Positions 3,944 through 13,507 of a stretch of DNA of 32,000 nt are shown here, piece after piece. The translations under genes were made by a program, and so were the position numbers. This DNA is from Azoarcus sp. (GTDB taxonomy: Bacteria > Pseudomonadota > Gammaproteobacteria > Burkholderiales > Rhodocyclaceae). A model generated the notes under the pieces. The model had not been told where the DNA came from. It did no database searches and saw nothing but the letters and a program-made list of their open reading frames with translations. Location of the stretch: contig JAUVVG010000030.1 of NCBI GenBank assembly GCA_030604735.1, forward strand, positions 12,984 through 44,983, written 5' to 3'. Numbering within the stretch: the stretch's first letter is position 1; every line of letters begins with the position of its first letter.

Positions 3944-4609
3944 ATGTTCTACGGGATCACAGACCTCACGACCTTCATTCTGGGCACGATTTTCATCGTG
4001 CTGTTGCCGGGTCCAAACTCGCTCTACGTGATGTCTGCCGCCTCGCGCTGGGGCGTCGCCGCAGGGTACCGCGGTGCCTGCGGAATCTGCGTCGGCGACC
4101 TGATCCTGATGCTGCTCGCAGTCAGCGGCACCGCCTCGTTGCTGCGGACCACGCCGGAACTGTTCATGGTCATCAAGTACGCCGGCGCGGCCTATCTGGC
4201 ATGGGTCGGCATTGGTTTGTTGCGTTCAGCAATTCAAAGCTGGCGAAAGCAGGGCAGTTTCACCGAGGCTTCGGTCACGCAGAACGATGCGGTGGTGCGT
4301 AATAGTCCGCGTACATTCCGGACCGCGCTAGTGATCAGTTTGATGAACCCGAAGGCAATCCTTTTTTTCGTGTCGTTCTTCATTCAGTTCGTGGACCCGG
4401 CTTACGCCCATCCAGGACTCTCATTCATGATTCTGGGCGTCATCGTTCAGATCTGCAGCGCACTGTACCTGTCTGCGCTGATCTTCGGTGGGGCCTATCT
4501 TGCCGTTCAGTTCAGGAAGCGTCGTCGCCTCGCCGCGGGCGCAACCGGCGCCATAGGCGGGTTGTTCATCGCGTTCGGAGCAAAACTGGCGACCGCAACC
4601 TTGTCCTGA
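3944..4609 (+). CDS. leuE: LysE/RhtB-family amino-acid exporter (LeuE-like)
   Basis: MFYGITDLTTFILGTIFIVLLPGPNSLYV... resembles the E. coli LeuE N-terminus (IFIVLVPGPN). It is a multi-TM protein of 221 aa. The track start at 3878 adds 22 non-homologous residues. Confidence 0.75.
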   Translation: MFYGITDLTTFILGTIFIVLLPGPNSLYVMSAASRWGVAAGYRGACGICVGDLILMLLAVSGTASLLRTTPELFMVIKYAGAAYLAWVGIGLLRSAIQSWRKQGSFTEASVTQNDAVVRNSPRTFRTALVISLMNPKAILFFVSFFIQFVDPAYAHPGLSFMILGVIVQICSALYLSALIFGGAYLAVQFRKRRRLAAGATGAIGGLFIAFGAKLATATLS

Positions 4610-4747
4610 GCGATGCGGCGGGGGGTGGCGTCATGATGTCGACACCCAATCCCCGGCCTGAGAGGTTCCAAAGTCCGAACGCTTTCGACTTGGTGAGAGC
4701 GATCAGGCTTGTTCCGTCAGGGGCGCCGGACCGGTTTCATTCCCTCG

Positions 4748-5050
4748 TTACACGTACCGGACAGAATGGTGTCTGATATCGTAGTTTACATAATACAGAT
4801 TATCGTTCTTTCCTTCGTAGAATCTGGCGAGCCTTTCTATGCCCCGTGCATAGCCAAATGGGTCACGCGCTTTGGCCAGGATGATGCAAATCAGATGAAG
4901 TTCGAAAGGAGAGACGCCGAGCAATAGCAGGCGTTTTTTTTCGGCCAGGATTTTCCGGTACCAGGTGCGTCGACTGGGTCGCGTGGCTCGTGGGGTGAGC
5001 CTGCGTCGACAGTACAAGTTCGCGAGGTTTCGGGACCAGTCGGGGAGCAT
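4748..5050 (-). CDS. Hypothetical protein (Arg-rich N-terminus, possible winged-helix-like core)
   Basis: Starts at an internal ATG of track ORF 4748..5284: MLPDWSRNLANLYCRRRLTPRATRPSRRTWYRKILAEKKRLLLLGVSPFELHLICIILAKARDPFGYARGIERLARFYEGKNDNLYYVNYDIRHHSVRYV. The AT-richer 3' part looks coding. There is no clear RBS and I recognise no family. Confidence 0.4.
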   Translation of the reverse strand: MLPDWSRNLANLYCRRRLTPRATRPSRRTWYRKILAEKKRLLLLGVSPFELHLICIILAKARDPFGYARGIERLARFYEGKNDNLYYVNYDIRHHSVRYV

Positions 5051-5075
5051 GGGGTTTTTTAATCGACTGGGGGGA

Positions 5076-5241
5076 TCGGCGCAAGCGCCGACCGGGCTTC
5101 CTACGGACTGCGCTTCGCTCCGGTCCCTTCGGGACACGCCTTCGGCGTTCCTTCGGATCCCTTCCCCCTCCAGGCCTGTCGGCCTTCCGCGCTCCGCTTG
5201 GCCGCTGCGTTCCGCAGCGCGATCAGAGCCGCTACGCGGCT
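5076..5241. repeat. Array of short perfect GC hairpins with 2-4 nt loops
   Basis: TCGGCGC-AA-GCGCCGA (5076-5091), GTCCC-TTC-GGGAC (5123-5135), ACGCC-TTC-GGCGT (5136-5148), AGGCC-TGTC-GGCCT (5172-5185), CGCTGCG-TTC-CGCAGCG (5203-5219) and AGCCGC-TAC-GCGGCT (5227-5241). Confidence 0.7.
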
Positions 5242-5243
5242 GT

Positions 5244-5456
5244 GCCTTCTTCCCTGCCCTTGCGCTTTCCCGACCCCCTATCACTGCCGCCCTTTTGCCC
5301 GCTTGTGCCGCATCAAGTCGGAAAGAAAAGGGTAAAGGCTTCGCCCCGCTTCGCGGCCCTTGTCTTTCCTTTGTTGATACGGCCCGGCACGGTCAGGGCG
5401 ACAGCGATAGGGGGTACGGTGGGAAAAAAGACAAGAGTGCAGGGAAGAAGGAAGGC
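5244..5456. repeat. Imperfect inverted repeat of about 210 nt (rod-like hairpin, apex about 5351)
   Basis: CCTTCTTCCCTGC (5245-5257) is the exact reverse complement of GCAGGGAAGAAGG (5439-5451). Inner arms also pair: CCCCTATCACTGCCGCCC with GGGCGACAGCGATAGGGG, GTGCCG..ATCAA with TTGAT..CGGCAC, and GGAAAGA.AAGGG with CCCTT.TCTTTCC. The apical hairpin is CCGC-TTC-GCGG (5346-5356). Confidence 0.75.
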
Positions 5457-5522
5457 AAACCCGGATGGGCTCGAGCTCCAGGGGCCCGGTAGGTTTAACG
5501 ACGGAAAAAGCGAGGTGATGAG

Positions 5523-5762
5523 ATGACGATCAAAGTTCTGAAGACATACAGGCGCGAACAACCAGGGCAAACCCCGTTTAAGGTAATGACCCGCGTGTAT
5601 TTTGATGACTATTTGGAAGAATACACAGTCGGACTATTTGTCGACGGGAAGAAGCAGAAGGGCGCGACCTACTTCACCGACGATAAAGACGATGCCCTGC
5701 AAACCGCGCAGTACATGAGGAACCACCTGGACGAGATTGTAGAGGGAGTGGGACGGTCATGA
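5523..5762 (+). CDS. Hypothetical protein, 79 aa (prophage accessory gene)
   Basis: ATG is preceded by GAGGTG. The sequence is complex and non-repetitive (MTIKVLKTYRREQPGQTPFKVMTRVYFDDYLEEYTVGLFVDGKKQKGATYFTDDKDDALQTAQYMRNHLDEIVEGVGRS). It lies on the strand opposite the phage operon, has lower GC, and its stop overlaps the next ATG (ATGA). Confidence 0.6.
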   Translation: MTIKVLKTYRREQPGQTPFKVMTRVYFDDYLEEYTVGLFVDGKKQKGATYFTDDKDDALQTAQYMRNHLDEIVEGVGRS

Positions 5763-5974
5763 AAATCAGGCCTAGCAGTAGCAACGCGTTCGGAATCAGA
5801 TTCACAGGATACGATATGGTATGGGACATCCGGACAGATATGTTTCCGTGGAGATACATGATACAAGCAGAGCTCGGCGCATTGGATGCGCCGGACACTT
5901 TACCAGGGGGGATCATGATCGAGTACCTGGAAGGCACGTATGGGATGCTGCCATCAGTGGCAAAACGAAACTAA
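5759..5974 (+). CDS. Hypothetical protein, 71 aa (ATGA-coupled to the 79-aa ORF)
   Basis: ATGA overlap at 5759-5762. Sequence: MKIRPSSSNAFGIRFTGYDMVWDIRTDMFPWRYMIQAELGALDAPDTLPGGIMIEYLEGTYGMLPSVAKRN. It is followed 5 nt later by the hairpin (5979-6007) that carries the 29-bp repeat (5982-6010). I recognise no family. Confidence 0.5.
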   Translation: MKIRPSSSNAFGIRFTGYDMVWDIRTDMFPWRYMIQAELGALDAPDTLPGGIMIEYLEGTYGMLPSVAKRN

Positions 5975-5981
5975 CTAACCT

Positions 5982-6010
5982 GGATAGGAGGGGGACTCCT
6001 GTCCAGGCTG
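5982..6010. repeat. 29-bp direct repeat, copy 1 (hairpin-forming)
   Basis: GGATAGGAGGGGGACTCCTGTCCAGGCTG is identical to 6206-6234. The hairpin CCTGGATAGGAG-GGGGA-CTCCTGTCCAGG spans 5979-6007 and has one T.G pair on the plus strand. Confidence 0.95.
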
Positions 6011-6034
6011 AAGTATGAGATGAGAGGCAGAGTG

Positions 6035-6175
6035 ATGAACGACCGAGAAGAAAACATATACAACGGGTTCAAAATATTAATAATATTGATCGGATCGATA
6101 GCGATCGGATATGAACTCGGCAGCGGAGTTGGAATTGCGGCATTCTGTTTTTCTGTTGTAATGAAGTTGAAATAG
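6035..6175 (+). CDS. Small hydrophobic peptide, 46 aa (not in track)
   Basis: Hand translation gives MNDREENIYNGFKILIILIGSIAIGYELGSGVGIAAFCFSVVMKLK, with one predicted TM segment. GAGAGG lies upstream. This is the AT-richest part of the window and sits exactly between the two 29-bp repeats. Confidence 0.4.
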   Translation: MNDREENIYNGFKILIILIGSIAIGYELGSGVGIAAFCFSVVMKLK

Positions 6176-6198
6176 GTGGGCTTGAAAACAGAGAAGAA

Positions 6199-7173
6199 CT
6201 AGCCGGGATAGGAGGGGGACTCCTGTCCAGGCTGGACAACCGGCAGAGCGAACGGCAATGGGCGATCCATTGCCGTTCTGCATTGGAAGTCGGTCATGTC
6301 GAGAATCTTCCCATCGTTGCCGAAGCAGCGACAGGCACGAGCGTTCATGATGCAGCCATGGATCGGTTCAAGTCGATCAGCAAAGACCCAGTCGGATATA
6401 CCGTCAGAGACCGGTATAACGCGCTGCCTCACCGGTGGTTCCGGGGAAGCAGCGCGAGAGCCCTCCCCCACACCCCCGACGGGGCTTTGCAGGATGGAAA
6501 CGACTTCACTGGTATCGGATGCGACACCGAAGGCGGTGGCGATCATGCCGTCCGAGTTCGCGATGCGGGTCACGACCCATCCGACGAGCAGGACCAGGAC
6601 CACACCCATGATGATGATCTTGCGGGGTATCTTGCGCTTAACGGTATGAATCGTGGCTGACTTGTAGAGGTCGAAGAGTTTCTTGTCGTATCGCCAGATT
6701 TCCATGTCGGCCGCGTCGCGTTGCTGGCGGTCGTTTGGATCGAGAACGGCATGCTGCCACTTGTAAAGTGTGGTCTGCTGGAGGCCAGCGGGGCGCATCA
6801 AATGGATATGAGCCGGGGAGCCACCGCCGCCGAGGTGTTCCCTCACCTGGTGGTGGACCTTGGTCGGATACTGAGTCGCAATGAGGAAATCGAAACCCCG
6901 GTGACGGTGTTTGTCGAGGTCGACAATCTCGCCTTCCTGGGAGCGTCCTGGCTTGCCTGTCGCAGGCCAACGCTGGTGGACTTCGTCGATGACGATGAAG
7001 GCACCATCGGCGCACTGGCGCCAGTCGTCGGGGAGCGGATCGACGCCATCCAGCTTGAGGCCATCGACGTTGGAGTAGACCGGGCGGCCTTGCTTGACCG
7101 CTTCAACGGTCTCGCGCATGAGGAACAGCGACTTCCCAGAACCCGGGGAGCCGGTCACGAGCGAAATGGGCAT
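6199..7173 (-). CDS. Filamentous-phage assembly ATPase pI (Zot-like)
   Basis: MPISLVTGSPGSGKSLFLMRETVEAV... Walker A at the N-terminus, IVIDEVH Walker B-like motif, a central TM segment (IIIMGVVLVLLVGWVV) and a Cys-containing C-terminal domain. The start ATG 7173 overlaps the upstream stop (TAATG). The track start at 7275 is an extension. Confidence 0.9.
   Translation of the reverse strand: MPISLVTGSPGSGKSLFLMRETVEAVKQGRPVYSNVDGLKLDGVDPLPDDWRQCADGAFIVIDEVHQRWPATGKPGRSQEGEIVDLDKHRHRGFDFLIATQYPTKVHHQVREHLGGGGSPAHIHLMRPAGLQQTTLYKWQHAVLDPNDRQQRDAADMEIWRYDKKLFDLYKSATIHTVKRKIPRKIIIMGVVLVLLVGWVVTRIANSDGMIATAFGVASDTSEVVSILQSPVGGVGEGSRAASPEPPVRQRVIPVSDGISDWVFADRLEPIHGCIMNARACRCFGNDGKILDMTDFQCRTAMDRPLPFALPVVQPGQESPSYPG
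6206..6234. repeat. 29-bp direct repeat, copy 2 (inside the 3' end of the zot-like gene)
   Basis: Identical 29-mer. It encodes the last residues (..VVQPGQESPSYPG) of the pI/Zot ORF on the minus strand. Confidence 0.95.
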
Positions 7174-7454
7174 TAGTTGGACTTCCCTATGAAGATTTGG
7201 GCGGCCTGGATTGCGATCCGGGCCGAGAGGCCCGAGAGAACCGCCGAGAGAGCCACCCCAAAGCCCGCCATCCAAAGAATCTGAGCAGCAGCCGGAAGCA
7301 GTCCCGAAAGATTAGAGAGAACATGGCCCACCCATTCATTGAAAAGCGGTTCGATGACAACGTAAGTGCCGATGCCGAGACCCGCCCCGACGAGAATTCG
7401 GGCGACGGCAGAGACCATAATCCACATACCGACATAGAACAGCATGCCTTGCAT
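7173..7454 (-). CDS. Putative minor coat/assembly membrane protein (pVI-like)
   Basis: 93 aa and very hydrophobic (MQGMLFYVGMWIMVSAVARILVGAGLGIGTYVV...). It lies between the pIII-like and pI genes as in other inoviruses, with TAATG overlaps on both sides. Confidence 0.6.
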   Translation of the reverse strand: MQGMLFYVGMWIMVSAVARILVGAGLGIGTYVVIEPLFNEWVGHVLSNLSGLLPAAAQILWMAGFGVALSAVLSGLSARIAIQAAQIFIGKSN

Positions 7455-8782
7455 TACGATCGCCTCCAGCCGACAAGAATCATGACTGCCGCGAGCCAGC
7501 CGGTGGCGATCACCAGGGGTCGAACAGCAGTTGCGAAATCACAAAACGGGTCATATTTGACCTGGACAGCGCCGAGGCCGATGCTCAAGTTCATAGGTGC
7601 GGGGCAGGTGCCGGACGACGGTAGGCCGAAGTTCTGCGCCGAGAGTTGGACGGGATCGAGTTCGGGGAGGTCGACACTTTCCGGGTCGTCTGCCTCATCA
7701 CGGAACCAGTCGGCCAGATCGCAAACGATCGTTGCCCAGTCGCAGAAGCCAGGAAGTTCGAATGGGGGTGGCGGTTCGACAGGGGGGTTCGTGGGATTAA
7801 TATGCTCAGGTGCGACGTTAGGGTCGACTTGCGGATTACCTTCCGGGTCCGCCGTCGTGAGAGGTTCCCGGAAGGGATCGAGACGGAGACGCCAGGGCGA
7901 CTCGGGTGTCGGATCGGGGGTTATGCGGACCTTGTCTTGCCAGGGCTGACCGGTGAGCGGATCGGTGTAGGGGTTTCCGAGGGGTTCGACGAATGGCGTA
8001 ATCTCGGGAACCTGTACAGGCAATGGCAAGTGGCGAGCAACATCCGATAAAACATGAGCAGGCCAGTTAGCGGTCGTGACCGTGTTCCACTGAGAATCCC
8101 CTGCTACTTGCACTTGTCCAACACAGAAACCACCATTCAAAACCAAGTTCGTTGGACACACATCCGTTTGATGACGGGTAACCCCCTGGCCACCCGTCCA
8201 AACCAAAACGCCATTTTGATAATGCCGGTAGAGAAGTTCCGGCGCAGAATACCCTATGACTTGATATGTATTGATCCCACTGTTGAAGTACGAAACGAAA
8301 GCAGCGGCATACTGCAAAAAATCACACTGAACACCCGATGGTGATCCCGGCGCTGTGCATCCAGGAACAGAACCAGTGAAAAAACCGGACGGAATGTCAT
8401 ACGCGACAGGAGTGGACTCGGGAATAGACCAATCACCGTTAACGAAATCCATCGAAAACTCTGCCAAGAGCCACGCCGCTACAGATGTGCCGACAAACAA
8501 GAGCGGGTTAGCGCGTACAAAGGGCGCAGCATATTGTCCCCCGTTTGCCGCCATACGAAGCGAAGCAGGCACAGTGACCGACTTTCCGGCTACCTGTACC
8601 CTTGCAGCCGCTTGGAACGCAGAGCCGCTCCAAGCAACGGACGAAGGCGGCTTATAAAAAGAACCGGAAGTAGCTTGAGACCATCCACTCGGGGGGGTCG
8701 CCGCCGCGTATTGCGACGATGCAACACCGGGGAGCAGCAGCACGAGAATCAGTACAGCAAGAGCCATGCGCCCCCCAGGCAT
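7454..8782 (-). CDS. Putative adsorption protein (pIII-like)
   Basis: Lies between the coat genes and the pVI/pI genes. It has a signal-peptide-like N-terminus (MPGGRMALAVLILVLLLPGVASS), a Pro-rich linker (PDPTPESP.., PTNPPVEPPPPFELP) and a C-terminal anchor (LVIATGWLAAVMILVGWRRS). An alternative ATG is at 8767. Confidence 0.65.
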   Translation of the reverse strand: MPGGRMALAVLILVLLLPGVASSQYAAATPPSGWSQATSGSFYKPPSSVAWSGSAFQAAARVQVAGKSVTVPASLRMAANGGQYAAPFVRANPLLFVGTSVAAWLLAEFSMDFVNGDWSIPESTPVAYDIPSGFFTGSVPGCTAPGSPSGVQCDFLQYAAAFVSYFNSGINTYQVIGYSAPELLYRHYQNGVLVWTGGQGVTRHQTDVCPTNLVLNGGFCVGQVQVAGDSQWNTVTTANWPAHVLSDVARHLPLPVQVPEITPFVEPLGNPYTDPLTGQPWQDKVRITPDPTPESPWRLRLDPFREPLTTADPEGNPQVDPNVAPEHINPTNPPVEPPPPFELPGFCDWATIVCDLADWFRDEADDPESVDLPELDPVQLSAQNFGLPSSGTCPAPMNLSIGLGAVQVKYDPFCDFATAVRPLVIATGWLAAVMILVGWRRS

Positions 8783-8824
8783 GCCAGCATGACATAGTAG
8801 CCTTCCATGATTTTCTCCCTGGAT

Positions 8825-8848
8825 GGGACGAGGGTCGCCCCCCGTCCC
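8825..8848 (-). terminator. GC hairpin between coat gene and pIII-like gene (possible attenuator)
   Basis: GGGACGAGGG-TCG-CCCCCCGTCCC has about 10 bp of stem with one mismatch and no clear U-tract. Its position mirrors the partial terminator after gene VIII in Ff phages. Confidence 0.3.
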
Positions 8849-8860
8849 GGTTGAGTCAGA

Positions 8861-8989
8861 TCAGAAGAACGATGCCTTGATCCAGCGGAAGGCAAAGACG
8901 ACGACAGCGACACCGATGATGGCGAGGCCAACGGTTTCGATGTCAGTACCCGCATCAGCAATGGCGGTATTTACGGAAGTGAGATCCAT
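8861..8989 (-). CDS. Major coat protein, Pf3-type, leaderless (copy 2)
   Basis: Hand translation gives MDLTSVNTAIADAGTDIETVGLAIIGVAVVVFAFRWIKASFF (42 aa), with GGAGAA upstream. The C-terminus closely resembles the Pf3 coat (..GGAIIVLAAVVLGIRWIKAQFF). It is not in the track because it is under 60 aa; track ORF 8749..8961 is in another frame. Confidence 0.85.
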   Translation of the reverse strand: MDLTSVNTAIADAGTDIETVGLAIIGVAVVVFAFRWIKASFF

Positions 8990-9007
8990 GTGAGATTCTC
9001 CAAAAAT

Positions 9008-9136
9008 TTAGAAAAATGAACCCTTGATCCAGCGGAACAAGAAGACCACTACAGCGACACTAATGATCGCGAGACCGAGAGACTCGATGTCCGTCGATAC
9101 CAAACCAATAGAGTCCATTACGCCTTCGATAGACAT
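9008..9136 (-). CDS. Major coat protein, Pf3-type, leaderless (copy 1)
   Basis: Starts at an internal ATG of track ORF 9008..9196: MSIEGVMDSIGLVSTDIESLGLAIISVAVVVFLFRWIKGSFF (42 aa), with GGAG 5 nt upstream. It is a paralogue of 8861..8989. Confidence 0.85.
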   Translation of the reverse strand: MSIEGVMDSIGLVSTDIESLGLAIISVAVVVFLFRWIKGSFF

Positions 9137-9138
9137 AC

Positions 9139-9318
9139 CTATCTCCGGTTGAGAACGACGTAGGCGATCTGGCGCGCGGCCCAGGCTGTGGCCCAAACCG
9201 CAAAAATCGCCCCGCTTATCACCAGCCCATCTTCAGCGGATAGAGCCGGTAATCCTGTGACGTACTGAACCCAGGCAGTACAGTCGTTATTCGTGATTTC
9301 CGTGCAGACGAAGTACAC
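9139..9318 (-). CDS. Hypothetical small membrane protein, 59 aa, GTG start
   Basis: Hand translation gives (V)YFVCTEITNNDCTAWVQYVTGLPALSAEDGLVISGAIFAVWATAWAARQIAYVVLNRR. The GTG immediately follows, in frame, the TAA of the 25-aa ORF. The stop lies 2 nt before the coat copy 1 start. Confidence 0.35.
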   Translation of the reverse strand: MYFVCTEITNNDCTAWVQYVTGLPALSAEDGLVISGAIFAVWATAWAARQIAYVVLNRR

Positions 9319-9396
9319 TTAGAACACCCTTGCGAACATCACACCGAAGGTGACCGTGAGGCCGAACGAACCGAGAAACCAGATTGCTGATTGCAT
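9319..9396 (-). CDS. Hypothetical 25-aa hydrophobic peptide (pVII/pIX-size)
   Basis: MQSAIWFLGSFGLTVTFGVMFARVF, with AAGGGGAA upstream, 10 nt after the stop of the preceding micro-ORF. Confidence 0.4.
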   Translation of the reverse strand: MQSAIWFLGSFGLTVTFGVMFARVF

Positions 9397-9406
9397 GGGA
9401 TTCCCC

Positions 9407-9544
9407 TTATGAGCGTAGAAGCGCAAGCGCGTTGGAGACGATCGGAGAGGTATAAAGAGCAACGCCTGCAAGAAGTAAGGCGAAGGCTACGGACCCCAAA
9501 CACGAGACGAACAGGACCCATTCCCAGAACGAATAGATTTGCAT
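9407..9544 (-). CDS. Hypothetical 45-aa membrane peptide
   Basis: MQIYSFWEWVLFVSCLGSVAFALLLAGVALYTSPIVSNALALLRS, with AGGAA upstream. The longer track ORF 9407..9775 runs through the noncoding region downstream of rep. Confidence 0.5.
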   Translation of the reverse strand: MQIYSFWEWVLFVSCLGSVAFALLLAGVALYTSPIVSNALALLRS

Positions 9545-9735
9545 GGGGTTCCTTGATAATTGGGATAGCGATCGGTTACGTTCTGGCGCACTTATGAGCG
9601 CACAGGATTCAATGAACTGACGTTGGGCGGTCGGCGCGGGGTGGGCGGCGAGCCTGCCCACTCCCCCGCCGCCGCCGTCCTCGACAGGCCCACGATTGGG
9701 TTCCCACGCTTGCGCGTCATCGGCACGCTTGAGCA

Positions 9736-10881
9736 TTACGCCGCCCTCCTCGAGACATCGGGCAGCCCGTACCACTCCGGAGCCTGGAGGGGTTGAAGGG
9801 TGAAGGACGGCAGGCCATCAAGCAGCGTCTGGAGTTGATCGACGGAACCGTCTGACTTGATAGGACGCGGTTCGGACGCGTCGATGCCGTAGTCGCGGAG
9901 AGCCTTGACGTGCCGGAAGTAGGTGGCGCGACTGTAGAGTTCGCGGAGATCGTCGCCCCTGATCCAGTGAAGGGCCGCCGATCGGACCTTGGTCGGCATT
10001 TCGGAGACGATGCGAGCGGCCCGATCGGGCGTGACATCGTGCAGGAATCGGGTTTCGGCCCGGAACAAACTGATGATCTTGGCCATGTTGGCATCCCCTA
10101 TGAACCTAAGCGCGTTGTCGCGTAAAAAGTCTTTACCCCATTTGCATTCGATACGGACGAGTCCGAGATCGCGAGCGAATTGATATTCCTGGCTGGACTT
10201 GACCCTTTTCTTGGCTTCATCGCCCTTGGCGTGGTCGAGCATTTCCTGAGCTTTGCGATAAACGACGATGCGTTTGTGAAGCTTGCCGCTCCGCTTTCCA
10301 AAGACCACGGTCTGAGTACCGTAGACGCCTTTGGAAAGCCGGGCAGCACGAAGGCCGGTGAAGTACCGCATCACTTCGATGGAGAGCTTGTCATTGCCGG
10401 CAGCCATGTTCTCGGTGACGTGGAGTTCGCGAAGAACGGCACCGGTCCATTCGGTCCAGAGGCCGAGGTCGTGGTCATGCTTGGAGACGGACGCCTTCGC
10501 ACGGCATTCCCCAGGCGTGAAGCGCGGTAGGTCGTGGGCCTGGACGATGTCAGAGGCCTTGTCGATGGTATCGACGATGTCGTAATTCCACACGTTGTCG
10601 GGGCGGTCGAAGCGCCCGACGTTACCGGAGAGTTCAACGTTCCTGCCGTCGCAGCGCACCAGGAGCGAGGTGTCATGTGAGCCGCGACGCTGAAGGCGTG
10701 GAACCTGATAGGTGACGTTGTCGCCGTCTGGGGTGAGCACACACCACTTGCGCCCGTCCGTCGTTTCCATCATTTCGAATGACTTGCCCCGGACCCGGAC
10801 GCCATCGGAGACGATCGGCAGATCGATATCGTCTACCGCGTGGCGTTGGGCGAAGGAAAGCCAGTCGATAAAGACGCTCAT
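9736..10881 (-). CDS. Rolling-circle replication initiator (gene II/CRI-type phage Rep)
   Basis: The MSVFIDWLSFAQ.. N-terminus (IDWL motif) and its size are typical of filamentous-phage replication proteins. The ATG at 10881 forms an ATGA overlap with the upstream ORF stop. The track start at 10890 is a GTG. Confidence 0.8.
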   Translation of the reverse strand: MSVFIDWLSFAQRHAVDDIDLPIVSDGVRVRGKSFEMMETTDGRKWCVLTPDGDNVTYQVPRLQRRGSHDTSLLVRCDGRNVELSGNVGRFDRPDNVWNYDIVDTIDKASDIVQAHDLPRFTPGECRAKASVSKHDHDLGLWTEWTGAVLRELHVTENMAAGNDKLSIEVMRYFTGLRAARLSKGVYGTQTVVFGKRSGKLHKRIVVYRKAQEMLDHAKGDEAKKRVKSSQEYQFARDLGLVRIECKWGKDFLRDNALRFIGDANMAKIISLFRAETRFLHDVTPDRAARIVSEMPTKVRSAALHWIRGDDLRELYSRATYFRHVKALRDYGIDASEPRPIKSDGSVDQLQTLLDGLPSFTLQPLQAPEWYGLPDVSRRAA

Positions 10882-11246
10882 CGGCCCCACCCATGTACGT
10901 AGGGATTCGAAGCCTCAAGATCGGCAAGGTCGTAACCCATCGCAACAAGACGAGCACTAACCGAGTTCAAACCCGACGAACTAGTCTCAAATTGAGACTC
11001 CACAGCACTCTTTACTTGTACGTGCTGTGAAGGGCCGAACCGGCCGCTGGAGGTGGTCGGGACGATCGGGGTGGTGAAGGAGTCGGCACGGTAGAAAAGC
11101 TCAAGTGCACCATCAGTGATCCGGAGGACCGATTGGTCCCCGTCACGCTGAAGGCGCACCAGCTCAGTGAGGGAGTCAACGAAAGAACGCGAGCGGAACA
11201 GTTCGAATGTTCCGCTTCGCGTTTCGCGTTCGAGGACGTAGGCCAT
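10878..11246 (-). CDS. Hypothetical protein, 122 aa
   Basis: Translationally coupled on both sides (TAATG at 11246, ATGA at 10878-10881). The sequence is complex and I recognise no family. Confidence 0.6.
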   Translation of the reverse strand: MAYVLERETRSGTFELFRSRSFVDSLTELVRLQRDGDQSVLRITDGALELFYRADSFTTPIVPTTSSGRFGPSQHVQVKSAVESQFETSSSGLNSVSARLVAMGYDLADLEASNPYVHGWGR

Positions 11247-11482
11247 TACGTGAAAGCCTTTTTGCCAGCGGACGTACTGACAGAAAGCTCACCATTAAAA
11301 TGCTGCCGTAGGTCCTTCATGTACCTATCGAGCGATTCCCGGAGCTGTTTACCAAGCATTTTCGGAACAACCTGACAAACGAGAGGTGTGGAAACCCCAT
11401 CCTCTCCAGGCACCAAAACAAAGGCGACGTAATACCGCCCGCATGTGGAAGGAACATGGAAGCCTTCAACCCGTAGCGACAT
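11246..11482 (-). CDS. Hypothetical protein, 78 aa
   Basis: Its ATG is 3 nt after the upstream stop (TGAGCCATG), and its stop overlaps the next start. Confidence 0.6.
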   Translation of the reverse strand: MSLRVEGFHVPSTCGRYYVAFVLVPGEDGVSTPLVCQVVPKMLGKQLRESLDRYMKDLRQHFNGELSVSTSAGKKAFT

Positions 11483-11485
11483 GGC

Positions 11486-11809
11486 TCAGTCCTCGACCAC
11501 GAACAGCTTGTTGTCGGCAGTGACGACAGTGCGTTGTTCGCCCGTTTCCCGGTCCGTGGATTTGTAGGAACGGCGGTAGCCGCCGATCCGGCAATGAAGG
11601 GTAATGTCTTGTTCCTGGTCGGCCTGGCGGGTTTTGGCCAGAACTTCGACGGTGGCCGGACTGGAGTACGGATCAGCGGCAGGAAGGACAACGAGGTGCG
11701 CGAAGTAGGTGCCCTGCTTCTTCGCCGACATGCAACGGCCCTTGATGATGACTTCACCGACTTTGAGTGATGGACCTTGTGCCTTTGGCAGTTCTGCTAA
11801 AGCAGTCAT
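11486..11809 (-). CDS. First gene of phage operon; possible ssDNA-binding protein (gV-like)
   Basis: ATG 11809 has GGAGAA 6 nt upstream. It is 107 aa with a beta-rich-looking sequence. The function is assigned only from position and size. The track start at 11836 is a GTG inside the operator. Confidence 0.45.
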   Translation of the reverse strand: MTALAELPKAQGPSLKVGEVIIKGRCMSAKKQGTYFAHLVVLPAADPYSSPATVEVLAKTRQADQEQDITLHCRIGGYRRSYKSTDRETGEQRTVVTADNKLFVVED

Positions 11810-11827
11810 GGTGGGTTCTCCGGTTGA

Positions 11828-11845
11828 ACTTTCCACATGGAAAGT
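11828..11845. promoter_or_regulatory. Candidate operator: perfect palindrome ACTTTCCA-CA-TGGAAAGT plus extra half-sites
   Basis: 8-bp perfect inverted repeat with a 2-bp spacer. Further half-sites are TGGAAAGT (11864-11871) and CGGAAAGT (11883-11890). TCAAGCGGAA occurs twice (11878-11887 and 11891-11900). Confidence 0.5.
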
Positions 11846-11851
11846 GCTCGC

Positions 11852-11881
11852 AGACTATCCAAATGGAAAGTAACTTGTCAA
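11852..11881 (-). promoter_or_regulatory. Candidate sigma70 promoter of the phage replication/structural operon
   Basis: On the minus strand: TTGACA (11881-11876), an 18-nt spacer, then TAGTCT (11857-11852). The palindrome starts 6 nt downstream of the -10, and one half-site lies within the spacer. Confidence 0.45.
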
Positions 11882-11925
11882 GCGGAAAGTTCAAGCGGAA
11901 GATGGCGAGACAGGAGGATAAGACG

Positions 11926-12348
11926 ATGGATATAGAAGCAAAGTGCTCGCAGGTAATGCGCAGAAACGGGTGGACGCAGCGTGAGCTAGCTACCGCTTTA
12001 GGCATAAGCGAAACGACATTGTCAAACGTCTTGAAAGGGCGTCGATCGTTGCCCGTTCATGCGTTTGTCAAATTAGAAAGGATGAGGGGAATAGACGATA
12101 AATCAATCGTCGATGAACTGATCCGAGCGGCCGCAAGTGTGGCGGCCGTTGTCATTTTGTTTTCGCCAGGGGGGAGCGAAGGGCCACGAACGGCGCCGGA
12201 TTCCGATACGAGAAGTGCACAGATTACAGATTATAACGATACAGAAGAAACGACTGAGAATGCGTATGCGGACAGTTCGTGCTCAAAGCCCTGTCGGAGT
12301 TTTTTACATCAGCCGGTCATCAGCATGATCAGAATCCCTTTTGCGTGA
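11926..12348 (+). CDS. XRE-family HTH repressor (phage c-repressor-like)
   Basis: ATG 11926 is preceded by AGGAGG. MDIEAKCSQVMRRNGWTQRELATALGISETTLSNVLKGRRSLP is a classic Cro/CI-type HTH. It is divergent from the phage operon. The C-terminal half is non-homologous (hydrophobic AAASVAAVVILF followed by an acidic tail). Confidence 0.8.
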   Translation: MDIEAKCSQVMRRNGWTQRELATALGISETTLSNVLKGRRSLPVHAFVKLERMRGIDDKSIVDELIRAAASVAAVVILFSPGGSEGPRTAPDSDTRSAQITDYNDTEETTENAYADSSCSKPCRSFLHQPVISMIRIPFA

Positions 12349-12471
12349 AATAAGTCACGGATTAGAAAGGCTTGTTTTCTAGTGGGCGTGATTCGTGCTT
12401 GGGATAATGAAAGAGATGGCTCGCCTGACGGACGGCGCGGTGACGATCCGGGCGGGGTGTATGGAGAAATA

Positions 12472-12651
12472 ATGAGAAATTCGCGGCCGGATCAACGCGT
12501 CGATCTCGCAATGCGACAATTCGTCGGCAAGATCATCGAGTATCTGATGGAAGGCGGTGACCATGCCAACGCAATGATGAATATGGCCGAACGGGGCGTG
12601 CCCTACACGGTTCAGCGCCGGGTTATAGAGGGCAACGCGACCCGTCAGTGA
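12472..12651 (+). CDS. Hypothetical protein, 59 aa
   Basis: GGAG lies 5 nt upstream of the ATG. Sequence: MRNSRPDQRVDLAMRQFVGKIIEYLMEGGDHANAMMNMAERGVPYTVQRRVIEGNATRQ. This is preferred over the antisense ORF 12379..12564, but the call is weak. Confidence 0.35.
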   Translation: MRNSRPDQRVDLAMRQFVGKIIEYLMEGGDHANAMMNMAERGVPYTVQRRVIEGNATRQ

Positions 12652-12753
12652 TCAGGGCCTATCTTGATTAGGTATGCGAAGGTCGGATGACCAGGCGCCC
12701 GAATCCAGTATTACCCGATCGTGCCCGACAAAGACTCCATGCCCTGCAAAATC

Positions 12754-12770
12754 CTGATCGAAGCGATCAG
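12754..12770 (-). terminator. Possible mtnP terminator hairpin overlapping the stop codon
   Basis: CTGATCG-AAG-CGATCAG (7-bp perfect stem), followed on the minus strand by GATTTTG. Confidence 0.3.
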
Positions 12771-13507
12771 TCCTGGCAAATCCGTCCAAGCAGTTGCCGA
12801 ACCCGTGCCATCGCCTCTTGGAGAACCACCTCGATCTGTTCGAATTCGATCCGCTGTTCGCTGTCTCCGCGACCGGCCGCGTAATTGGCGATTACATTGA
12901 TGGCGGCATAAGGCAAACCGAGTTCGCGCGCCAGCGCCGCCTCGGGCATGCCAGTCATGCCGACCAGGTCGGCTCCGTCGCGTTCCAGGCGAGTAATCTC
13001 GGCCGCCGTCTCGAGCCTGGGTCCCTGCGTGGTTGCATAGACCCCGCCATCGAATACGGTTTGCTGGCAAGCCTTGGCCGCGATAAGAATCCGCTCGCGT
13101 AGCGCCCGATCGTAGGGATGGGTGAAGTCGATGTGCTGCACTGGCTGGTCTCCGCCACCTTCAAAGAAGGTGCCCACCCTGCCCCAGGTGTAATCGATGA
13201 TCTGATCTGGAATCACGAGCGTACCCGGCTTGAACTCGGTCCGTATGCCGCCCACCGATGCGACCGAGACGATCCCGGTCGCCTTTGCCTGCTTCAGCGC
13301 CCAAATGTTGGCCCGATAATTCACTTGGTGTGGCGGAATGGTATGGCCGTAACCATGGCGGGGCAGAAATACGACCGGCTTGTTGGCAAGTTCGCCGAAG
13401 ATGAGTGCGCCCGACGGTTCGCCATAAGGCGTGCGAACCACTTCGCGTCGGACGATCTCCAGTGAGGACAGACGGGTCAGGCCGCTACCGCCGATGATCG
13501 CAAGCAT
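12767..13507 (-). CDS. mtnP: Methylthioadenosine/methylthioinosine phosphorylase (PNP family)
   Basis: MLAIIGGSGLT...FLPRHGYGHTIPPHQVNYRANIWALK...GMTGMPEAALARE is typical of MTAP/MtiP. The ATG at 13507 has AAGGAGA upstream. The track start at 13546 is an extension. Confidence 0.85.
   Translation of the reverse strand: MLAIIGGSGLTRLSSLEIVRREVVRTPYGEPSGALIFGELANKPVVFLPRHGYGHTIPPHQVNYRANIWALKQAKATGIVSVASVGGIRTEFKPGTLVIPDQIIDYTWGRVGTFFEGGGDQPVQHIDFTHPYDRALRERILIAAKACQQTVFDGGVYATTQGPRLETAAEITRLERDGADLVGMTGMPEAALARELGLPYAAINVIANYAAGRGDSEQRIEFEQIEVVLQEAMARVRQLLGRICQD

Follow-up and report, generated by a model that had tools for sequence, protein, structure and literature searches.

A mosaic accessory cassette beside zot in a dif-flanked filamentous prophage ties an inovirus to the phage protein family phrog_7884

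The DNA analysed here, hereafter the window, is a 32,000-nucleotide (nt) stretch of contig JAUVVG010000030.1 of an Azoarcus sp. (assembly GCA_030604735.1, positions 12,984 to 44,983, forward strand). It carries an inovirus prophage of 7.4 kb, flanked by dif-like sites, in an Azoarcus-like bacterium, and our subject is a cassette of three small open reading frames (ORFs) within that prophage, at positions 5523-6175 of the window. On the minus strand, from about 4.8 to 12.2 kb, the phage encodes a single-stranded DNA-binding (SSB)-like protein, a G2P-type replication protein, two tandem Phage_Coat_B proteins, a pIII-like protein, a DUF2523 (pVI) protein and Zot (pI); the core genes that mark an inovirus (replication protein, Phage_Coat_B, DUF2523/pVI and Zot/pI) are all present. 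The zot gene is the final one of the morphogenesis operon and converges with the cassette. The features around the cassette are as follows.

About 5100-5480 (core 5245..5451), no strand assigned: intergenic hairpin block, directly upstream of ORF1
5523..5762, plus strand: ORF1, 79 amino acids (aa), ATG start, member of phrog_7884
5759..5974, plus strand: ORF2, 71 aa, its ATG at 5759 lying inside the end of ORF1
5962..6010, no strand assigned: repeat copy 1, with a 12-bp hairpin at 5979-6007, 5 nt past the ORF2 stop; relic zot 3' end
6035..6175 (46 aa) or 6020..6175 (51 aa), plus strand: ORF3, hydrophobic membrane-type peptide, 38% guanine plus cytosine (GC)
6186..6234, no strand assigned: repeat copy 2, with a hairpin at 6199-6235; true final 11 codons and stop of zot, which runs on the minus strand
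6199..7173, minus strand: zot, pI-like assembly ATPase, 324 aa (PF05707, E = 3e-24; phrog_197, E = 6.5e-58)

An initial annotation, made from the letters alone, had described three plus-strand ORFs of 79, 71 and 46 aa transcribed against the phage operon, the first two joined by an ATGA stop-start overlap. The coordinates bear this out: ORF1-3 oppose rep, the coat genes, the pIII-like gene, DUF2523 and zot, all on the minus strand, and the ORF1 TGA (5760-5762) and the ORF2 ATG (5759) together form an ATGA at 5759-5762. A Shine-Dalgarno motif, GAGGTG, lies 5 nt before the ORF1 ATG. As for ORF3, the start at 6035 (46 aa) is likelier than that at 6020, because a GAGAGG motif is found 7 nt before it. 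The initiation regions of ORF1 (5518-5542) and ORF3 (6015-6039) have ATGAGATGA in common, with 72% identity over 25 nt; this sharing could be due to chance or reflect a common regulatory or initiation element.

The cassette stands out by its composition. It has 48.2% GC, compared with 57.7% for the phage core and 60.4% for the entire window, and is the lowest-GC 653-nt stretch anywhere in the window. The earlier estimate of 38 to 58% GC for its individual 60-nt lines was accurate, and the window's AT-richest 120 nt, placed by that estimate at 6061-6180, was measured at 6046-6165 (37.5% GC). The description of the cassette as accessory low-GC cargo between the hairpin block and the 3' end of zot (stop at 6199) likewise stands. 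A further minus-strand phage gene, at 4748-5053, is located to the left of the hairpin block, so that within the phage the cassette forms an island on the opposite strand.

The region came together in at least two steps. ORF3 is bracketed by a direct repeat (D2) of 49 nt, 86% identical, whose 29-nt core is the same in both copies and occurs twice in the window, with zero occurrences expected by chance. Each copy holds a GC-rich hairpin of 9-12 bp, and the repeat RNA folds with z = -4.0 on the plus strand and -2.8 on the minus strand. On the minus strand, copy 2 reads CAG CCT GGA CAG GAG TCC CCC TCC TAT CCC GGC TAG, that is, QPGQESPSYPG-stop. Direct inspection of copy 1 reveals the same QPGQESPSYPG-stop with two synonymous changes (CCA GGT), and this relic stop abuts the stop of ORF2. 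In the ancestral state, therefore, ORF2 and zot were convergent, with their stops touching, and ORF3, having a duplicated zot 3' end on either side, arrived separately and later. Between the two copies, the unique segment of 175 nt contains little beyond the ribosome-binding site and coding sequence of ORF3; it was gained either by insertion with junction duplication or by recombination between phages sharing a zot terminus. Treating the three genes as a single cassette, as the initial annotation did, thus does not hold, since a strong hairpin and the duplicated zot ends set ORF3 apart. On the minus strand a U-rich tract comes after each hairpin, which makes the two hairpins probable terminators of the zot operon. 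On the plus strand the hairpins follow ORF2 and ORF3, and the hairpin of copy 2 is likely to be a terminator shared by converging transcripts. Two other identities for the repeat were considered and rejected: an integron attC site, as no GTTRRRY follows the hairpin in the segments inspected (5962-6015 and 6186-6240) and the repeat is a duplicated zot coding end, and a host repetitive extragenic palindromic element, as there are only two occurrences and they correspond to the zot coding end.

As far as sequence can tell, ORF1 is coding, beyond chance, because it matches the PHROGs profile phrog_7884 (function unknown) with E = 1.3e-14 over profile positions 17-65 of 66. The initial annotation had said of the first two ORFs that neither resembled a family known to its author, which thus falls for ORF1 and holds for ORF2, which is rare; ORF2 and ORF3 are essentially undescribed. 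The relatives of ORF1 found with tblastn share 35-49% identity with it and come chiefly from Pseudomonas phages. A profile built from them recovers 112 protein clusters, none of which has a Pfam domain, and a Pfam scan of 70 family members returned no consistent family. Members of phrog_7884 occur as free proteins of 60-80 aa, as tandem duplicates, as the N-terminal domain of proteins of 120-180 aa and with varied C-terminal extensions. Nine positions are conserved in at least 90% of the 70 sequences (E33, A48, Y50, T52, D54, D57, A58, T61 and A62), and ORF1 and the family share the motif EY.V.(F/L)...G....A.Y.T.D..DA..TA. The GC content of ORF1 by codon position is 0.55/0.33/0.64.

Structure prediction, which the initial annotation had proposed for the first two ORFs, gave a confident fold for ORF1 and an unusable one for ORF2. 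The AlphaFold2 model of ORF1, computed from the 70-sequence alignment, has a predicted local distance difference test score (pLDDT) of 82 and a predicted template-modelling (TM) score of 0.70, and consists of four strands followed by two helices. Its matches in BFVD are uncharacterised phage proteins only, and the structures predicted for proteins of phiPMW, shl2 and Alpheus match it with TM scores of 0.65-0.79. A fold search of the PDB with the model yielded nothing below E = 0.3; the WGR domain (E = 0.4, probability 0.8, TM 0.5) is a weak lead. At the sequence level, the PDB returned only a chance nanobody match, and a suspected likeness to YegP/DUF1508 was rejected (hhalign probability 0.1). 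A word-indexed search of 5.8 billion proteins with ORF1 gave self-hits only, locus scans of viral, genome and metagenome collections returned nothing, and neither ORF1 nor the homologue from an integrative and conjugative element (ICE)-type context, P0024, matched the PLSDB plasmids by tblastn. We found no mention of phrog_7884 in the literature. Among catalogued members (PhiS1_02 of Phi-S1, PspYZU08_01, UFJF_PfSW6_00003 and gp57 of phiPMW), which have 60-80 aa, ORF1 shares the profile, the motif and the four-strand, two-helix fold. It differs from them in that its first hairpin contains an insertion of 5 residues and its C-terminal helix is longer, and in that it resides in a filamentous prophage, on the strand opposite to the core genes.

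The homologues of ORF1 are found chiefly in lytic T7-like phages and in early-type gene arrays. In Pseudomonas Studiervirinae, the early region encodes relatives of 66 aa ahead of the RNA polymerase gene. A T7-like element of Nitrincola has a relative that ends 2 nt before a gene for the anti-restriction protein ArdA, with a second copy 2 kb further on. In an integrative element, the relative is directly upstream of the gene for a 639-aa ParB_N protein, with N6_N4 methylase, RadC, H-NS, DUF6900 and integrase genes nearby, and further relatives belong to small-gene arrays of tailed phages. A protein of about 160 aa encoded next to the homologues in Pseudomonas phages was considered as an obligate partner and rejected, as the gene order varies and the gene is absent elsewhere.

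These contexts point to a function for the invading element and not to host-benefit defence or addiction, and the initial proposal of a host-benefit, defence or addiction module loses its footing accordingly. We interpret the region as a mosaic moron cassette of a dif-integrated filamentous prophage, in which ORF1 would act early, in establishment or counter-defence, and not as a toxin-antitoxin (TA) or defence module; the chance that this interpretation is right we put at a little less than even. Its first part would be the translationally coupled ORF1-ORF2 pair, located about 70 nt past the hairpin block and running opposite to the main phage genes, and its second part the 175-nt ORF3 insert with its ribosome-binding site, a later addition. 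ORF1, perhaps with ORF2, would be made early and help the incoming element by countering host defence or re-tuning a host process. An early role for ORF1 would be in keeping with its relatives, which T7-like phages carry in the DNA that is expressed first and which in other cases adjoin ardA or, in an integrative element, ParB-like and methylase genes. ORF3, if translated, might act in the inner membrane, for instance to block superinfection.

ORF2 belongs to a very rare family. A full HMMER scan of 1.84 billion representatives identified, besides a near-identical self-cluster (P0002), a single credible relative, P0131 (73 aa, E = 3.6e-5), which is found on two short metagenome contigs; longer repetitive matches (P0128-P0130 and P0132) were judged to be spurious multi-stretch matches. 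The word-indexed search of 5.8 billion proteins returned ORF2 itself only, and locus scans of viral, genome and metagenome collections nothing. A third member was retrieved with a back-translated ELGxLDAPxxLPGG pattern, on the 243-kb metagenome contig Ga0074197_1000037 (locus L032), whose surroundings were examined by ORF listing and Pfam. At positions 6300-13150 of that contig, a divergent helix-turn-helix (HTH) repressor gene, a Ner-type HTH_35 gene, small genes, an rve-type transposase gene and an AAA_22 ATPase gene follow one another, with the ORF2-family gene between the Ner-type HTH gene and the rve/AAA_22 genes. The locus looks like the early operon of a Mu-like transposable prophage, and this occurrence of an ORF2 relative in a prophage early operon is a reason to extend the putative early role to the pair.

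The three known ORF2 family members share 20 invariant positions and the core RxTG(W/Y)..V..(L/I)RxD...Y..QxELGxLDAPx(S/T)LPGG. Over 50 codons, ORF2 and the P0131 gene differ at 16, 18 and 35 first, second and third codon positions, respectively, and 16 of their 24 identical residues are encoded by different codons. This divergence dominated by third positions shows ORF2 to be a real coding gene under purifying selection.

The initial annotation had likened the first two ORFs to TA or sensor-effector pairs, and we weighed the possibility that ORF1-ORF2 form a type II TA or addiction pair, with ORF3 as a type I-like toxic peptide. As in type II TA loci, two small genes adjoin, with an ATGA overlap and a predicted co-transcription, their location among prophage cargo is suggestive, and ORF3 is small and hydrophobic. 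None of the cassette ORFs has a toxin, antitoxin or defence match in Pfam, NCBIfam or PADLOC; with all three ORFs, PADLOC-DB 2.0 gave 0 families at E values up to 1. No toxin family is thus recognised in ORF1 or ORF2, although a novel toxin is conceivable, the structure of ORF2 being unpredictable, and the ORF1 model has none of the DNA-binding folds of antitoxins (ribbon-helix-helix (RHH), HTH, AbrB or Phd). ORF3 has the small size and membrane character of type I toxins; no Rfam family was detected at 4600-6500 on either strand, hence no Rfam antisense RNA near ORF3, and no convincing antisense promoter is found nearby, although a novel small RNA is conceivable.

Co-occurrence tells against a TA pair as well. 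At about 17 distinct contexts of ORF1 homologues, and at loci L011 and L012, tblastn detected no relative of ORF2, ORF3 or Zot, and the survey of co-occurrence that had been proposed for the pair thus found no ORF2 relative beside an ORF1 homologue. Sequence comparison therefore leaves the ORF1-ORF2 pairing as one that is not seen beyond this prophage among the loci examined, with the two genes apart in those contexts and ORF1 relatives abundant in lytic phages. Two ways in which a partnership might have been hidden were rejected: the gene preceding P0131, the ORF2 homologue of L011, is not a disguised ORF1 relative (-0.6 bits against the ORF1 profile), and no evidence of fusion supports ORF2 as a C-terminal extension of the 130-aa ORF1-family proteins. 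The ORF2 homologue of L032, too, has no detectable relative of ORF1 next to it. With no family match and a pairing that is not conserved, the comparison to a TA or sensor-effector pair is not supported, and we regard a TA function as quite improbable.

Another phage sheds light on the position of ORF1. An inovirus unrelated to the first (L023; tblastn finds no match between its Zot and the window Zot) is present in the metagenome-assembled genome of Rhodocyclaceae bacterium ppb04 (JACDZI010000080.1, 900-5400). It contains a near-perfect single-stranded DNA (ssDNA) hairpin of about 340 nt (z = -15), followed 54 nt later by a phrog_7884 gene (E = 4e-21), whose stop codon again forms an ATGA with the start codon of the following ParB_N/KorB gene. 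Next comes a gene of 78 aa, and genes for secretin, Zot and a DUF2523 protein lie convergent to the block. In the window, nested inverted repeats in the hairpin block (I9, 5245-5260/5436-5451, 94%; I3, 5273-5293/5395-5415, 90%) fold as minus-strand ssDNA over 5090-5525 with -119.6 kcal/mol (z = -6.1), and the block is presumed to be the inovirus intergenic region, with the origin or packaging signal. The window and L023 therefore agree in a layout that is found twice, in inoviruses that are unrelated but come from one bacterial family: an intergenic hairpin, a phrog_7884 gene about 55-70 nt on, a coupled second gene and convergence on the assembly genes. The L023 inovirus encodes its own secretin, and its ParB/KorB gene is unusual in a filamentous phage.

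This layout can be read in another way, namely as phage-intrinsic control or maintenance tied to the intergenic hairpin. The ORF1 family would then act on the replicative form, in replication, packaging, partition or silencing, and the ParB/KorB partner of L023 would be replaced here by ORF2. The order of hairpin, phrog_7884 gene and ATGA-coupled gene in two unrelated inoviruses fits such a role, as do the ParB_N genes directly downstream of the family member in L023 and downstream of that in the integrative element. In the circular phage, moreover, the cassette and the HTH repressor gene share a strand, on either side of attP (the phage attachment site), and phage XacF1 likewise has an overlapping opposite-strand gene pair. 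However, most family members belong to tailed, often lytic phages devoid of such hairpins or ParB, ORF2 is not ParB-like, and no DNA-binding fold is recognised in ORF1, the best PDB match being the WGR domain at E = 0.4. We consider this alternative unlikely on balance, and yet the main competitor of an early establishment or counter-defence role; TA or addiction, host defence and, for ORF3 only, chance ORFs appear to rank lower.

It is also tempting to speculate more broadly that the phrog_7884 proteins are 'first-in' factors of a new class, acting in establishment or anti-defence and serving elements that enter progressively or single-stranded, such as T7-like phages with their early regions, ICEs and plasmids with their leading-type regions, and filamentous phages. 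As the inovirus phrog_7884 gene comes right after the ssDNA hairpin and the packaged DNA would be its template, it could use a hairpin (Frpo-like) promoter before complementary-strand synthesis. If so, filamentous phages would have the equivalent of a 'leading region'. We found no convincing sigma-70 or Frpo-like hexamers in the hairpin block, and in this general form the idea is improbable.

Anti-defence genes cluster in the leading regions of plasmids and the early regions of phages (PMC11541004), and HerB/YfjB are ParB-like leading-region proteins (PMC13370423). The gene set around the ORF1 homologue of the integrative element resembles plasmid leading regions (PMC11541004) and recalls HerB (PMC13370423). 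As in anti-defence islands, ORF1 homologues are located beside ArdA, orphan N6/N4 methylase, RadC and ParB_N genes, or upstream of a T7-like RNA polymerase gene. In the inovirus, the likeness lies in an ORF1 gene that adjoins the ssDNA hairpin block and for which the packaged DNA would be the template. This is a parallel of position only, and no ssDNA promoter was identified in the window.

As for ORF3, an exclusion-type or toxic peptide role is possible from its sequence. It has a hydrophobic stretch of 32 residues (12-43), with a Kyte-Doolittle mean over 19 residues of up to 1.92. A precedent is PfsE (PA0721) of Pf4, an inner-membrane peptide of 30 residues that binds PilC, suppresses type IV pili and blocks superinfection (PMC8764522); its conserved aromatic YxWGW motif (YAWGW) includes Y16 and W20, both of which are required for function (PMC8764522). 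The cassette, and ORF3 especially, might accordingly shield the lysogen through superinfection exclusion or anti-phage defence. ORF3, at 46 aa, is likewise a very small hydrophobic peptide of a filamentous prophage, and low GC content and mosaic acquisition are typical of morons. Unlike PfsE, however, it has GYELGS in place of YAWGW and no tryptophan, and thus lacks the motif that PfsE needs; it is encoded on the other strand, outside the core operon, and has no detectable homology to PfsE, no homologues and no PADLOC match. The contexts of ORF1 relatives, in turn, point to offence and not defence. We deem host-benefit cargo rather unlikely as an account of the cassette; ORF1-ORF2 most likely serve the phage early, and service to the host is less likely.

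Whether ORF3 is a gene at all deserves caution, as its coding status is not demonstrated. A tblastn search of phages with ORF3 gave no match, its protein cluster has one member, and it is missing from the genes called publicly on the NCBI contig. These points, together with the absence of a detectable promoter upstream of ORF1, could suggest that the ORFs, or some of them, are frames that arose by chance in a non-coding spacer richer in AT. For ORF1 and ORF2 this is countered by the profile match (E of 1e-14) and by the third-position-biased divergence of ORF2 from two homologues, so that the explanation can apply to ORF3 only; for the cassette as a whole it is very improbable. Even ORF3 has some coding support, in its Shine-Dalgarno motif, its hydrophobicity and the near-perfect coincidence of the 175-nt unique insert with the ORF.

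Several observations weigh against the early-acting interpretation that we favour. Function is deduced from gene neighbourhood alone, and no member of the family has been characterised. The gene adjoining ORF1 homologues varies (ParB-like, ArdA, the 160-aa protein and others), and most neighbours are of unknown function. We found no sigma-70-like promoter upstream of ORF1, the AlphaFold2 model of ORF2 is uninformative (pLDDT 33), and ORF3, having no homologue, could be non-coding. Finally, the copies of this prophage in collections are near-identical only, so that conservation within its own phage lineage is not assessable.

Cargo genes (morons) adjacent to zot are well known in filamentous prophages, as exemplified by ctxAB of CTXphi and, beyond the core genes, the PfiT/PfiA toxin-antitoxin pair of Pf4, and such cargo is the source of cholera toxin, addiction modules and exclusion factors. 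The present cassette resembles ctxAB and PfiTA in lying between zot and the phage end or intergenic region, in its atypical composition and in appearing dispensable. Unlike them, it is read against the phage operon, and it has no sequence or domain relation to CtxAB or to ParE-type toxins and antitoxins. Another parallel is found in Xanthomonas phage XacF1 (Cf1c group), a dif-integrating inovirus whose ORF11 and ORF12 also form a pair with a 4-nt overlap opposing the main operon; that pair is larger (127 and 152 aa), is near the other end of the gene map and shows no sequence similarity to ORF1-ORF2. No inovirus record was returned from the phage collection by tblastn with ORF1 or with ORF2.

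Zot-adjacent cargo is thus already known and ORF1 belongs to a catalogued, uncharacterised PHROG; the hairpin-phrog_7884 layout is a testable lead and not a demonstrated new system. Environmental inoviruses are, to our knowledge, almost unexplored, and the cassette ties one of them to phrog_7884, a widespread, unstudied family of small proteins of phage early regions. As the same layout is found in two unrelated Rhodocyclaceae inoviruses, it offers a concrete hypothesis that is cheap to address, early establishment or counter-defence. The analysis also removes from the cassette a tempting but unsupported TA or defence label, and ORF3 documents a single-gene insert added via duplication of the zot terminus.

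The prophage itself and its flanks are delimited by the following features.

4748-5053, minus strand: phrog_27692-like gene, 101 aa (E = 2e-5), to the left of the hairpin block
4783..4803, no strand assigned: left dif-like site; the reverse complement of 4785-4803 is ATAATCTGTATTATGTAAA
11902-12348, plus strand: HTH repressor ORF at the far end of the prophage, crossing the right dif-like site
12214..12234, no strand assigned: right dif-like site, with ATAATCTGTA in common with the left site (direct repeat D7, spacing 7431 nt)

The left dif-like site is the window's only perfect match to ATAA-N6-TTATGTNAA, GC skew flips sign within the window at about 14-16 kb, and no integrase was found among the prophage genes. 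The phage appears to have integrated near the replication terminus, at the site where chromosome dimers are resolved, which fits XerCD-type integration. Contig JARFTY010000069.1 of assembly GCA_029289255.1 matches the window with 99.94% identity, and the BipA of the window is in the same cluster, at 90% identity or more, as that of Azoarcus taiwanensis. The closest Zot of a known phage is that of Pf3 (33% identity); the whole prophage had no blastn match among 50,697 phage records, and scans for the Zot locus in viral, genome and metagenome collections returned nothing.

The ends of the element have some peculiarities. The 101-aa ORF at 4748-5053 crosses the left dif-like site into host DNA. 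In the circular phage it would stop at attP (...GKNDNL-stop), and integration therefore changes its C-terminus. On the other side, a low GC content of about 51% continues past the right dif-like site to about 12700, with a 59-aa ORF at 12472-12651; the segment 12235-12700 may be what is left of a different dif-integrated element, or else the real boundary may be located beyond it.

Between positions 1 and 15762, all nine differences from GCA_029289255.1 are G/T or C/A transversions, with no transitions, and one of them alters residue 52 of ORF2 (I to S). This transversion-only pattern looks like damage or sequencing error and not like ordinary divergence. The divergent SSB/rep operon is separated from the repressor gene by a segment (11819-11899) with a 27-nt inverted repeat, which includes the palindrome ACTTTCCA(C/A)ATGGAAAGT twice (11828-11845 and 11854-11871), and the two copies are likely operator sites. 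The major coat gene (Phage_Coat_B) is duplicated, as tandem 42-aa genes at 8863-8947 and 9010-9094 whose DNA is 76% identical.

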